Positions 25,186-28,590 of a stretch of DNA of 50,582 nt are shown piece after piece (position 1 is the stretch's first letter; the number at the start of each line of letters is the position of its first letter). Origin of the DNA: Candidatus Micrarchaeota archaeon (GTDB lineage Archaea; Micrarchaeota; Micrarchaeia; Anstonellales; Bilamarchaeaceae); assembly GCA_964435235.1 (NCBI GenBank), contig CAYSXZ010000057.1, positions 1 through 50,582 on the forward strand, in the 5' to 3' direction. A program made the position numbers and the translations under genes. The notes beneath the pieces were generated by a model. The model worked only from the letters and a program-made list of their open reading frames with translations. It was not told the DNA's origin and ran no database searches.

Positions 25186-26078
25186 GGACAAAATTGCGAA
25201 ATTTTGTCCGCATTGGAAATCATCAAATTTTCAATGCAACTAGATATGCAAACCACCTAGAGGATGGCTAGGCTTATGCCCGCACGGTCACGCGGCAAGC
25301 TGCGATAAGCCTTGGGTAGCCGCAAGCAGGCTTTGAACCAAGGGTCTGACTGCGCACAGTAATGTGCAGCAACTCCCCGAAATGAAGCGTCTTAGTAGGG
25401 GAAGGAAAAGAAACCAATAGGGATCCGGTTAGTAACAGAGAGTGAAAGCCGGAGAGATCAAGCTGAATTCCTCTGCAGTAATGCAGAGGTAGATGTGGCG
25501 GGGTGCAACCTCCTTCTCATCCGAAGTTGCTTGGAACAGCGCACCTTAGCGGGTGATAGTCCCGTAGGAGAAGGAAGGAGGTGCTAACCAAGAAGAGTAG
25601 TGTCTCTTGGATAAGAGGCATGAAGATGGGTGTATCAACATCCAATTCTAAATATGGGGCATAAGACCGATAGCGAAACAGTAGCGCGAGCGAACGCCGA
25701 AAAGTACCCCGGAAGGGGTGTGAAAAGATCCTAAAACTAGGTGGTGACAGCATGATACGGCACGAAAGGGCAGGGCTGCAGAAGCGACCTCTGGTAACGG
25801 AGGAAGCGATGCAGTTTAACCAGTGTCGTGTCTTTCTTCTCGAAGCAAGAGCCAGGGAGTTTGTGGGCGTGGCGAGGCGAAAGCCGAAGCGAAAGCGAGT
25901 GTCCGCAGCGCAGCAATGCGTGAGGGACGTCGTGGTAACTCGCGACCAGTCACTCTCACAAGACCCGAAGCCATTGTGATCTACGCCCGAGCAGGACGAA
26001 GCCAACCTGACGGTTGGTGGAGGTCCGCAACTAGTGGTAGTATATTCTCCTTAGGTGACTTGGGTGTAGGGGTGATAG

Positions 26079-26123
26079 ACAACCTTTGTCCAGGTTTTTA
26101 GGAAGGGACAAAAGTTGGTCAGT
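26079..26123 (+). other. BHB mini-intron I1 (45 nt, loop AGGUUUUUAGGAAG), 23S domain II
   Basis: Central helix tgat (26073-76) / gtca (26118-21). Bulges aga and gtt. 12-position stem caacctttgtcc/ggacaaaagttg (one C-A mismatch). Removal leaves GGGGUGAUAG|UCCUGUCGAAC. Confidence 0.75.
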
Positions 26124-26970
26124 TCCTGTCGAACGTGGCAATAGCGGGTTCCCCTCGAAATGTGTCTCAGCACAGCGTCTCTGGAGAATGATGTGGAGGT
26201 AGAGCACTGATTAGACAGAGCGGTACCGAAAGGTATCACTGTCTTTTCAAACTCCGAATGCCACATCTTCGTAGAAGGAGGCAGTGGGGTTGCCGGAGTA
26301 AGTTTGGCGACCTATTCGTGAACGAACGTACGTAAGGTTAAGGACCCTAAATTCTGACTAAGTGTTAATCGCAAAGGAGTCTCCATTCGAAAACAACCGG
26401 GAGGTAGGCTTAGAAGCAGCCATCCTCTAAACAACGCGTAATAGCGGACCGGTCGAGAGTGCAGACTCTGAAGATTCACGGGACTAAGTCAGATTCCGAT
26501 ACCTTACCCAGGCCAAAAGCCTTGGACTAGGGGGGCGAACGGGAAGCGTAGAAGTTAGGCCGTGAGGTCTAATGGAGCGACCTGTTATGAATATCCTGGT
26601 GTTAGTAGCAGCATATCTGGATGAGAATTCCAGACACCTTATAGAGCAAGGTTTCCTCAGCCACGTTCTTCAGCTGAGGGTTAGGCGATCCTAAGAACTT
26701 AGGTAACTCCGAAAGTTCGAAATTAGGGAAGCCGGTTAATATTCCGGCCCTGCAGAGGTAGGTGCGGCAACGCGTGCCATTCTCTGACTCCTTTGGATAG
26801 GTGAAGCGGCTACGGCCGTCTGAGGAGAGTAAACTCGTGGAGTCTCATTATGAGGAGAAGCGGGCGAAACTCTAAGGGGAAACTTCATCGAATCCAGGGG
26901 ACCATGAAAAACGAGAATGGATCGATCCTCTGCAATCGTACCGAGAACTAGTACAGGTGCTCTAGCTGAA

Positions 26971-27017
26971 ATCCAAAGAACAGGTGTTCTTTGTCTGTCC
27001 TGTTTTTTGAACAGTAC
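26971..27017 (+). other. BHB mini-intron (47 nt, different loop UGUUCUUUGUCUGU)
   Basis: Central helix gctg (26965-68) / cagt (27012-15). Bulges aaa and aca. 13-position stem. Removal gives ACAGGUGCUCUAGCUGAA|AAGGCUAAGGUG, the same length as the reference ACAGGUGGUCAGGUAGAGAAUACCAAGGCG. Confidence 0.65.
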
Positions 27018-27239
27018 AAGGCTAAGGTGTGGCAGGATAACTCAGACAAGGGAACTCGGCAAGTTAGCCCCGTATCTTAGGTAGAAGGGGTGCCTTCGCA
27101 TCGGTATGCGGAGGTCGCAGTGACAAGGGGGGAGCGACTGTTTACCAAAAACACAGGTCATCGCAAAGCCGAAAGGCTGTGTATGATGGCTGACGCCTGC
27201 TCACTGCCAGTACCTGAACGTCCGTTTCAAAGCTTTGAA

Positions 27240-27270
27240 AGCGGGTGCTTTCAAAATTGCCCGCCAAGGC
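27240..27270 (+). other. Candidate 31-nt BHB intron near the helix-68 apex
   Basis: Central helix tttg (27234-37) / caag (27265-68). Bulges aaa and gcg. Inner helix gcgggt/tgcccgc. The mature sequence cannot be validated from memory. Confidence 0.3.
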
Positions 27271-27323
27271 GGACAACGGAAAGAAGGGCTGGTAAAGAGC
27301 GGGGGTAACTCTGACCCTCTTAA

Positions 27324-27360
27324 CATTCGGCTTCCTAGCTACTAGCCGAATGAAGAGAGA
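27324..27360 (+). other. 37-nt hairpin insertion splitting the universal CUUAA|GGUAGCG block (E. coli 1928/1929)
   Basis: ccctcttaa-[cattcggct tcctagctact agccgaatg aagagaga]-ggtagcg. Helix tctt/gaga, with a 2x2 internal loop in place of a clean 5' bulge (relaxed BHB). Confidence 0.6.
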
Positions 27361-27729
27361 GGTAGCGTAATACCTCGCCGCTTAATTGGCGGCTTGCATG
27401 AATGGCGTAACGACTCCCCCACTGTCCCTGTCTGGGACCTGGTGAACTCACTGTCCGGTGAAGATGCCGGAGACTTCCAGAGGGAAACGAAGACTCCATG
27501 GAGCTTTACCATAGCCTAATGTTGTGGTGCGAGGTTTGCTACCAAGAGTAAGTGGGAGCCATCGAAGCAATTCTTTCGGGAATTGTGGAGGCGAAAGTGT
27601 TACACCACTTAGTAGATCTTGCATTGCTTACCCGCAAGGGAACAGCGTTAGGTGGATGGTTCGGCTGGGGCGGTACGCCCTCGAGAAAGGAACAAGGGCG
27701 CCCAATGCTCTGCTCAGTCCGGTCAGAAA

Positions 27730-27772
27730 AAACTTTTCACAAGGTTTTTAGGAAATGGGAAAAGTTTTTGAA
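27730..27772 (+). other. BHB mini-intron I2 (43 nt, loop AAGGUUUUUAGGAAAU)
   Basis: Central helix caga (27724-27) / tttg (27767-70). Bulges aaa and aat. Removal gives UCCGGUCAGAAA|UCGGAUG, matching the archaeal GGGUCAGAAAUCC-type hairpin (about E. coli 2305-2311 by my count). Confidence 0.7.
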
Positions 27773-27940
27773 TCGGATGTAGAGGGTGAAAGACAAATGC
27801 AGGGCTGACTGTGTTCCTAAAAGCGTGGAACGCAGAGACGAAAGTCGGGCTTAGCGAACCTTGATATCCTTTTGATGGGGATTCAAGCTGTCAGACAAGC
27901 TACCCTGGAGGTAACAGGCTCGTCGCGGGCGAGAGTACAC

Positions 27941-28012
27941 AAAACTTTGCTTATGTTTTCTTAGGGCAAAGTTTTATCAAAGGTCCTTAGAGTAAAACTC
28001 AAGACCGTACAA
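27941..28012 (+). other. About 72-nt two-hairpin insertion at the helix-89 apex (E. coli 2477/2478)
   Basis: Helix gtac (27935-38) / gtac (28007-10) with bulges aca and aaa. Removal gives CGAGAGUACAC|AUCGAC versus E. coli CAAGAGUUCAUAUCGAC. The inner helix is not contiguous, so the boundaries are tentative. Confidence 0.5.
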
Positions 28013-28067
28013 ATCGACCCCGCGGTTTGGTACATCGCTGTCGGCTTGGGACATCCTGGTGGTGCAG

Positions 28068-28110
28068 ACGTTTTTTGCCAGATTTTTAGGAAGGGCAAAA
28101 ATCGGCATAA
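28068..28110 (+). other. BHB mini-intron I3 (43 nt, loop AGAUUUUUAGGAAG), helix-91 apex
   Basis: Central helix gtgc (28062-65) / gcat (28105-08). Bulges aga and aag. Removal gives CCUGGUGGUGCAG|GAGCCACCAAGG, 25 nt as in E. coli CCUGGGGCUGAAGUAGGUCCCAAGG. Confidence 0.75.
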
Positions 28111-28131
28111 GAGCCACCAAGGGTTGGGTTG

Positions 28132-28176
28132 ACATGAATTAGTCAGGTTTTTAGGAAGGGCTAATTCATGGCCCAA
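28132..28176 (+). other. BHB mini-intron I4 (45 nt, loop AGGUUUUUAGGAAG) inside the A-loop (helix 92)
   Basis: Central helix gggt (28126-29) / gccc (28171-74). Bulges tga and aat. 12-bp stem. Removal gives GGGUUGGGUUG|UUCAUCCAUUAAAG, which restores the UGUUC loop. Confidence 0.8.
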
Positions 28177-28282
28177 TTCATCCATTAAAGTCCCACATGA
28201 GCTGGGTTCAGTACGTCGCGAGACAGTACGGTAGTATCTTCTGGAAGCGTTGCCTCTTGAGAGGAAGGATCCTTGAGTACGA

Positions 28283-28325
28283 ACAGATTTTGTCAGGTTT
28301 TTAGGAAGGACAAAATCTGGTATAA
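28283..28325 (+). other. BHB mini-intron I5 (43 nt, loop AGGUUUUUAGGAAG) inside the sarcin-ricin loop (helix 95)
   Basis: Central helix gtac (28277-80) / gtat (28320-23). Bulges gaa and aag. 11-bp stem. Removal gives AGUACGA|GAGGAAC. Confidence 0.8.
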
Positions 28326-28545
28326 GAGGAACGGGGATCCGGCGCCTCTGGTTTACCGGTTGTGAATTGCACCGCCGGGCAGCTACGCGCCATGTCGATA
28401 AGACCTGAAAGCATCTAAGGTCGAAGCGACTCTCAAGACGAGGAGGCAAATGCCGCGGATAGCAGATCCGTTTGATAGGACCGGGGTGTAAGTGGTAAGG
28501 GAAACCGAGCCATTCAGCCTGCGGTTACTAAAGGCTTATTTCGAA

Positions 28546-28590
28546 ACCCATTACTGACCGTTGGGTACTTCCTTTTCTGTTATCTTTTTG
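28546..28590 (+). other. 3' strand of the pre-23S rRNA processing stem
   Basis: Complementary to 25113-25185 (see the 5' strand entry). Confidence 0.75.

Follow-up and report, generated by a model that had tools for sequence, protein, structure and literature searches.

Short introns in archaeal rRNA genes have been described in systems close to the one examined here. The hairpin ("HP") class of Thermoproteales 16S rRNA genes comprises bulge-helix-bulge (BHB) introns that are shorter than 50 nt, form a hairpin, and carry no open reading frame (ORF) (Jay and Inskeep 2015, PMC4496867). In Micrarchaeota and other DPANN archaea, BHB introns occur in both the large-subunit (LSU) and the small-subunit rRNA genes, beside group I introns at LSU positions 1923, 1931, and 2593 (Nawrocki, Jones and Eddy 2018, PMC6125680). 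Statements on these and other published systems refer to the cited passages of each source. In this report, we examine a 43-nt insert in the 23S rRNA gene of a Candidatus Micrarchaeota archaeon, located at positions 28068 to 28110 on the forward strand of a 50,582-nt stretch of DNA (contig CAYSXZ010000057.1) that is hereafter called the window. The insert interrupts the apex of helix 91 between positions that correspond to E. coli nucleotides 2532 and 2533. We consider that it is an archaeal BHB mini-intron of the short hairpin class, and we give this reading a probability of roughly 0.85.

Like the Thermoproteales HP introns, the element is shorter than 50 nt, lacks an ORF, combines a hairpin with a BHB core at its junctions, occupies a conserved rRNA site, and belongs to a set of several introns per gene. 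The hosts differ, however, in that the HP introns reside in 16S rRNA genes, whereas the site described here (2532/2533) lies in the 23S rRNA gene of a micrarchaeote. The intron load is also far above that of the HP introns, with nine inserts in the 23S gene and 10 in the 16S gene of this genome and about 35 and 24, respectively, in one of its relatives (G014). Moreover, the structures of HP introns are not generally conserved within loci (PMC4496867), whereas the elements described here retain a single apical loop at different sites and in different genera. The study by Nawrocki and colleagues concerns the same phylum and the same host genes, but it is a catalog of group I introns with BHB introns marked in a figure, and neither mini-intron families nor a conserved loop is seen in its cited passages (PMC6125680). 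Our literature search, which covered one collection of papers, found no DPANN rRNA mini-intron family with a conserved apical loop, and it found no intron at LSU position 2532/2533, a site that is not searchable as a term. A further likeness is to the transposing tRNA-intron families of Thermoproteales that Fujishima et al. reportedly described in 2010, which are said to place related BHB introns at many stable-RNA sites per genome and to imply self-copying. Unlike those families, the copies described here reside in rRNA and are conserved in the loop rather than over the whole intron. Short BHB introns in rRNA are already known, and the conserved loop with its run of five uridines (U5) is the new part.

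A 43-nt insert with unique boundaries in helix 91

The genome under study (labeled G000; other G numbers denote related genomes) is a 946-kb draft assembly in 66 contigs that is 91.7% complete. A whole-genome search identified a single LSU rRNA gene, which scores 2260.8 bits and covers positions 1 to 2987 of the model. At 3314 nt the gene exceeds the 2987-position model, and relative to intron-less relatives it carries nine short inserts of 37 to 72 nt. Infernal alignment of the last 850 nt of the 23S gene places 44, 74, 45, 48, and 49 letters in hairpin loops for which the model has 1 to 6, and the loop of helix 91 accounts for 45 letters compared with 2 in the model. The gene and the insert are located as follows.

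25236..28549, + strand: host 23S (LSU) rRNA gene (Rfam RF02540).
28068..28110, + strand: insert at the helix-91 apex, read as a mini-intron, 43 nt, E. coli 2532/2533 (Infernal, relatives, BHB parse, E. coli alignment).

The insert reads ACGTTTTTTGCCAGATTTTTAGGAAGGGCAAAAATCGGCATAA. Its excision leaves the 25-nt product CCTGGTGGTGCAGGAGCCACCAAGG, which is identical in every letter to the hairpin that forms helix 91 in three relatives without the intron, G003, G022, and G032. Using E. coli numbering established by alignment with rrlH of NC_000913.3, the product aligns without gaps with nucleotides 2520 to 2544, and the insert falls between 2532 and 2533. An initial annotation of this DNA, made from the sequence without database searches, had likewise proposed that removal of the insert yields a hairpin as long as that of E. 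coli helix 91. Because a shift of one base in either direction alters the product, the boundaries are unique, and the insert with these exact boundaries is a real feature of the gene.

We compared helix 91 among 25 full-length LSU genes from 41 related genomes, from which five genomes with partial or fragmented matches had been excluded. The helix is uninterrupted in 19 of the 25 genes, and the insert is missing from G001, G003, and G006, all of which belong to the same genus as G000. Inserts of at least 15 nt vary widely in number among the 23S genes of this genus, with none in G003 or G006, two in G001, nine in G000, and 10 in G005. The genes of G005 and G014 are interrupted at the same nucleotide of helix 91 by inserts of 40 and 46 nt, respectively, that have the same ends (AC...GGCATAA) and unrelated interiors. 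Three more genomes (G011, G019, and G007) have inserts in the helix-91 loop that we placed by eye about 2 nt downstream. Therefore, this loop carries an interruption in six of the 25 LSU genes, and the interruptions fall at two neighboring positions. The homologous presence across related lineages that characterizes an expansion segment was not observed for the helix-91 insert in these genes.

A relaxed BHB motif at the insert boundaries

Every insert boundary was scored against a 3-4-3 BHB motif. For the helix-91 insert, this analysis yielded the following elements, in which a slash within a bulge marks the predicted cut.

28062..28065, + strand: 5′ strand of the 4-bp central BHB helix, exon GUGC, which pairs with 28105 to 28108 (4/4 pairs).
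28066..28068, + strand: 5′ bulge AG/A, predicted cut between 28067 and 28068 (BHB parse, fold).
28069..28079, + strand: 5′ arm of the intron stem (h′), which pairs with 28094 to 28104 (10 pairs and a U-U mismatch).
28080..28093, + strand: 14-nt apical loop AGAUUUUUAGGAAG, a G-to-A variant of the family loop AGGUUUUUAGGAAG (alignment).
28094..28104, + strand: 3′ arm of the intron stem (h′) (BHB parse, alignment).
28105..28108, + strand: 3′ strand of the central BHB helix, intron GCAU (BHB parse, fold).
28109..28111, + strand: 3′ bulge AA/G, predicted cut between 28110 and 28111 (enforced fold).

The H-B-h′ half of the motif, consisting of the 4-bp helix, the 3-nt 5′ bulge, and the intron helix, is present at helix 91. 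The 11 positions of the intron stem comprise 10 pairs and one U-U mismatch, formed by nucleotides 28071 and 28102. On the 3′ side, enforcing the motif leaves six unpaired nucleotides (AAGAGC) at the cut site. Because of this 6-nt bulge and an adjoining helix of zero pairs (h = 0), we class the motif as a relaxed BHB that is strict on its 5′ half only.

The architecture is shared with other inserts of the gene, as had been claimed in the initial annotation. Four siblings that carry the loop motif form 4/4 pairs in the central helix and 10 to 12 pairs in the stem, and their boundaries are compatible with the sequence of intron-less genes. The equivalent 5′ bulges of the sibling copies read AG/A, UG/A, or GA/A. 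When folded freely, the local sequence at the siblings in helices 92 and 95 adopts the BHB form at minimum energy, and removal of these inserts restores the sequences of intron-less relatives. Because these two siblings interrupt the A loop (at 2553/2554) and the sarcin-ricin loop (at 2660/2661), they must be removed.

Searches for self-splicing introns were negative. Within the window, only the LSU rRNA family attains its gathering score and none of the group I or group II intron families does, and a permissive Rfam scan of positions 28050 to 28130 returned nothing better than an E value of 1.6. An element of 43 nt is too short to hold a ribozyme core.

Splicing enzymes and a proposed pathway

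The genome encodes the enzymes that removal of such an intron would need. A 391-amino-acid endonuclease on contig C3 has two tRNA_int_endo matches within one frame of 396 codons, and it matches the structure of the epsilon2 EndA from ARMAN-2 (4fz2) over its full length (E value of 8.8e-129). The ARMAN-2 enzyme cuts strict BHB motifs as well as relaxed ones in vitro (PMC3239211, PMC3488258). The same enzyme type is thus encoded here, and the cutting of relaxed motifs is what the 3′ side of the helix-91 insert needs, although the substrates tested in the cited passages were pre-tRNAs, as opposed to the rRNA mini-introns considered here (PMC3239211, PMC3488258). The ligase RtcB is also encoded (465 bits), in a frame of 987 codons on contig C22 (186-3008, + strand). 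The Pfam match of RtcB is split by about 1450 nt, which is an intein-sized gap. A second ORF with a tRNA_int_endo match (170 amino acids) is found on contig C52 (13631-14140, − strand). This ORF was considered as an intron-linked enzyme and rejected, because it is present in 23 of 24 genomes of the same taxonomic family whatever their intron load.

These components suggest the following pathway. In the pre-rRNA, exon GUGC (28062-28065) would pair with intron GCAU (28105-28108), and the interior of the insert would form the 11-position stem and the 14-nt loop. The 5′ cut site would thereby be exposed in the 3-nt bulge AG/A, and the 3′ cut site (AA/G) would lie in the looser bulge of about six nucleotides. 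The epsilon2-type endonuclease would cut both sites, after which RtcB would join the exons to yield the 25-nt helix-91 hairpin and would probably circularize the 43-nt intron.

RNA contigs that skip the inserts

RNA evidence was sought among metatranscriptome contigs. Each of the 24 runs examined holds less than one-third of the sampled words. Four runs contain contigs that match exon segments 27650-27726 (77 nt) and 27789-27912 (124 nt) with 0 mismatches. Because these segments are at least six and at least nine letters, respectively, away from all 24 relatives, the organism or a near-identical strain is probably present in those runs.

A contig from run X2 (depth 68) links nucleotide 28067 to nucleotide 28111 and skips exactly 43 nt. 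A loose end of this contig indicates that it also continues beyond the helix-92 insert. Similar joints occur at other sites, in that RNA contigs skip exactly 72 nt at helix 89 and another contig skips 43 nt at helix 95 with six mismatches in its flanks. One longer skipping contig has a helix-91 3′ strand of the G006 type. The interiors of the five introns located between 27650 and 28450 have zero contig cover in the four runs, a result that we do not count as evidence. The contigs are consistent with splicing but are not proof of it, and we infer splicing from the combined observations.

The apical loop is nearly constant while the stems change

The loop of the helix-91 copy, nucleotides 28080 to 28093, reads AGATTTTTAGGAAG and departs from the family loop by a G-to-A change at position 3. 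The initial annotation had pointed to this change, together with the T-T mismatch of 28071 and 28102, as a sign that the copies are diverging. Both differences are present, but the loop is not unique to this copy, since AGAUUUUUAGGAAG is identical (14/14) to the loops of two 16S copies of G014, a genome of genus g9. The change is therefore a tolerated or shared, recurrent variant rather than decay of the helix-91 copy.

A search of the window for the motif AGGTTTTTAGGAAGG with up to two mismatches gave five matches, all of them on the + strand and within the 23S gene, compared with 0.12 expected by chance; none of 100 shuffled sequences reached five. Genome-wide, the 23S gene contains all four matches with no or one mismatch. 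At two mismatches, the total of 10 compares with 11 for a reversed control, such that those two-mismatch matches that lie elsewhere than in the 23S gene seem to be due to chance. The whole-genome motif scan found no member of the loop family in the tRNA genes of G000. Among relatives, the family is present in the 23S and 16S genes of G005 and G032 and in the 16S genes of G290 and G014. In a sample of 401 genomes from the phylum, the exact 15-mer has 16 matches in nine genomes, compared with three for the reversed control. Ten of the 16 matches, from four genomes, are in rRNA hairpins, and the other six have no hairpin or rRNA context and are at chance level. A scan of species-representative genomes gave 43 matches at 42 loci, among which the six rRNA hairpin copies all belong to genomes already known, with no added lineage; the remaining matches are mostly bacterial chance matches. 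The family numbers at least 15 members, spread over the 16S and 23S genes of five genomes of the Anstonellales.

Fifteen copies from these five genomes, in both 16S and 23S genes, retain the loop AGGUUUUUAGGAAG and align without gaps over 36 columns (11 + 14 + 11; alignment A2). An earlier alignment (A1) of 11 copies with their exon flanks was structurally inconsistent and was replaced by A2. Of the 14 loop columns, 10 are invariant and three more are at least 90% conserved, while 10 of the 11 stem pairs change on both sides. Paired cells amount to 90.9% compared with 58.0% in shuffled alignments (0 of 500 reach the observed value), and sliding the partners gives 30 to 53%. Mean pairwise identity is 41.5% for the stems and 94.7% for the loops. 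The same pattern is found at a single shared 23S site (784/785), where the copies of G000, G005, and G032 retain the loop and have rewritten stems.

A loop shared by recent descent alone should bring shared stems with it. Because the stems differ, the loop is under constraint, and because it stays nearly constant while the stems drift by compensatory change, it must serve the RNA. The weight that the initial annotation gave to the invariant loops is thus justified by the 15 copies. The loop would be either a binding site for a trans-acting factor or a feature needed for the persistence or spread of the intron.

Uridine runs are not confined to the family defined by this motif. Among the 70 short 23S inserts (up to 60 nt) of the 25 LSU genes, the central 18 nt contain a run of at least five T residues in 33 cases and such a run of A residues in two. 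This excess is strand-specific and is therefore a property of the RNA. When 35 inserts are aligned on the T run, the consensus is a purine, U5-7, A, G, G/U, A, A. Runs of five to seven T residues resemble archaeal termination signals, which are odd within the most heavily transcribed genes. We also considered by eye whether the loop forms a K-turn or K-loop and rejected this reading, because its G-A order is at odds with tandem sheared pairs.

Alternative explanations

Several observations count against the conclusion that the insert is a mini-intron of a loop-conserving family. With the BHB motif enforced, the helix-91 region folds at −21.6 kcal/mol, compared with −25.4 kcal/mol for the free local fold, and is thus less stable by 3.8 kcal/mol. 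In the free fold, the stem of mature helix 91 persists and the extra hairpin sits above it. A strict hBHBh′ (3-4-3) motif is absent, in that no pair adjoins the 3′ bulge. For the RNA data, the shorter side of the joint in the X2 contig extends over only 21 nt, and this contig cannot be attributed to the organism because intron-less relatives such as G003 encode nearly the same joined sequence. Longer joining contigs have mismatches or a different helix-91 3′ strand and therefore probably derive from relatives. In the four runs, no contig crossing the spliced helix-91 junction could be assigned to G000. Finally, the 15 copies were picked by loop match (up to two mismatches) and by at least eight of 11 stem pairs, a selection that inflates both the loop identity and the paired share; the set also includes one manually added copy and lacks at least one irregular one (G005 16S, site 482).

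The free fold and the RNA result would also fit a helix 91 that is just lengthened in this organism, with the added hairpin retained in the mature ribosome, and a hairpin apex can in principle tolerate extension. We nevertheless regard retention as improbable, given that 19 of the 25 LSU genes, including those of three members of the same genus, lack the insert. Expansion segments evolve otherwise than the inserts of G005 and G014, whose unrelated interiors occupy the same nucleotide. In addition, the ends of the helix-91 insert share their BHB geometry with the A-loop and sarcin-ricin-loop siblings, which cannot be retained, and an RNA contig joins the sequences on either side of the insert.

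The 43 nt could also be excised without religation, which would leave the 23S rRNA nicked at helix 91 in the manner of bacterial intervening sequences. A nick at the apex of a hairpin might be tolerated, and 23S rRNA that stays permuted in 50S particles has been reported for archaea of the Thermococcales (10.64898/2026.03.23.713588, PMC12918454). That explanation has little chance of being correct, however, because RtcB is encoded and the X2 contig is continuous over the joint between 28067 and 28111. A sibling at 2660/2661 lies within the sarcin-ricin loop. A single break in that loop inactivates ribosomes, and so ligation must work for this intron family.

An assembly artifact or a decaying rRNA gene copy, which a draft of 66 contigs at 91.7% completeness might lead one to suspect, is very improbable for the sole LSU gene found, which scores 2260.8 bits over the whole model, when independent genomes are interrupted at this very nucleotide or contain members of this loop family and the stems keep pairing through compensatory changes. 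The reading of 28068-28110 as a BHB mini-intron at the helix-91 apex, as initially annotated, is supported by the excision product, the BHB geometry, the encoded enzymes, the siblings, and the variation within the genus.

Other inserts in the rRNA genes

The other eight inserts of the 23S gene are given below by their positions in the window.

26079..26123, + strand: sibling mini-intron, 45 nt, shared loop family, E. coli 784/785 (motif, BHB parse, alignment).
26971..27017, + strand: mini-intron of a third family, 47 nt, E. coli 1633/1634 (central helix 4/4, h′ of 12 pairs).
27220..27265, + strand: insert, 46 nt, near E. coli 1855 (22/30 identity, central helix 2/4).
27323..27359, + strand: insert, 37 nt, E. 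coli 1927/1928 (boundary ambiguous by 1 nt).
27730..27772, + strand: sibling mini-intron, 43 nt, loop AGGUUUUUAGGAAA, E. coli 2311/2312 (boundary ambiguous by up to 2 nt owing to A runs).
27941..28012, + strand: two-hairpin intron, 72 nt, helix-89 loop, with a different loop, E. coli 2477/2478 (BHB parse, alignment).
28132..28176, + strand: sibling mini-intron, 45 nt, shared loop, in the A loop of helix 92, E. coli 2553/2554 (motif, BHB parse, fold).
28283..28325, + strand: sibling mini-intron, 43 nt, shared loop, in the sarcin-ricin loop of helix 95, E. coli 2660/2661 (motif, BHB parse, fold).

The site at 784/785 is also occupied in G005 and G032. For the insert at 27220-27265, the parse found no clean boundary or BHB motif, and the surrounding helix is also unlike that of relatives. 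The inserts of relatives at the 1927/1928 site range from 44 to 706 nt, compared with 37 nt in G000. At six 23S loci of relatives (L029, L032, L030, L017, L023, and L024), inserts of 560 to 990 nt are found near E. coli position ~1927 and elsewhere, presumably representing either BHB introns with an ORF or group I introns. The first hairpin and linker of the helix-89 intron (27941-28012) are near-identical to inserts in the tRNA-Phe gene on contig C4 (6047-6304), and that intron family therefore resides in both rRNA and tRNA genes.

The 16S gene of G000 (contig C33, 27710-29629; locus L010) is 1920 nt long compared with a 1478-position model, and it carries 10 inserts of 39 to 45 nt relative to intron-less relatives. 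Three of these inserts bear a U5 loop akin to that of the 23S family (among them GGGTTTTTATGCAGG and AGTTTTTAGGTACG). The heaviest insert load by far among the compared genomes is that of G014, from the same taxonomic family, with about 35 short inserts in its 23S gene (L034, 4589 nt) and about 24 in its 16S gene (L074, 2586 nt), the boundaries being approximate. A second mini-intron family occurs at many sites in the 16S and 23S genes of G000, G005, and G014 (L010, L064, L074, and L034) and has the form ...GCGACAGC-NCC-GATGTATGG-NG-ATGGAGCGC.... Two more families, AGCTTTGAAA...CAAGGC... and ATCC...GAACAG..., are common to the 16S gene, the 23S gene, and a tRNA-Gln gene.

Discussion

One conceivable function of the conserved loop is that of a binding site for an Sm-like protein (SmAP1/Lsm) carried by mobile mini-introns. 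The candidate site would be the purine-U5-AGGAAG loop or, more loosely, the purine-U5-7-AG loops that occur in half of the short 23S inserts of this lineage. We think this function doubtful. Sm-like proteins of archaea bind oligo-U, and SmAP1 of Sulfolobus co-purifies with tRNAs that contain introns (PMC4500138), while the eukaryotic Sm site is given as a purine-U5-GG element (PMC5587771). Sm sites and SmAP targets have a single-stranded purine-U5-purine-G core, as does the intron loop. In a single, post hoc comparison, the binding motif of Sulfolobus SmAP2 (PMC5587771) has 13 of 15 letters, 10 of them in a row, in common with the loop and closing bases of the copy at 27730, which is a matter of resemblance alone. 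We found one Lsm gene, on contig C47, whose 74-amino-acid product is of the SmAP1 type (E value of 2.6e-24 against AF-Sm1, 1i4k, compared with 1.4e-6 against SmAP2, 4xq3). Because SmAP1 did not bind the SmAP2 motif in the passages cited (PMC5587771), the SmAP1 type of the sole Lsm protein found counts against this proposal.

If such a site existed, the hairpin of the intron would be loaded with the Lsm ring, which would either keep the BHB region properly shaped for the endonuclease or pass the excised circle to the decay machinery. Such handling would matter in a cell in which about 19 introns are made per rRNA pair, and it would mean that these archaeal introns carry their own Sm site. Alternatively, the loop may be recognized by a binder that is not yet known, or it may be a feature for the spread or clearance of the intron.

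Taken by itself, the helix-91 copy adds the site 2532/2533 and one more member to the family but no new principle. The family as a whole illustrates how many interruptions an essential rRNA tolerates, with 19 in this organism and about 59 in G014, including those in the A loop and the sarcin-ricin loop, and a heavy intron load of this kind matters for rRNA-based surveys and primers. A loop that is nearly constant across sites, in both rRNA genes and in several genera, on stems that change by compensation is the signature of a functional RNA element and not of junk. If this loop binds a host factor or is required for the introns to spread, it would bear on whether Sm-like proteins have any part in archaeal intron handling and would offer a handle on how archaeal introns without ORFs multiply and persist.

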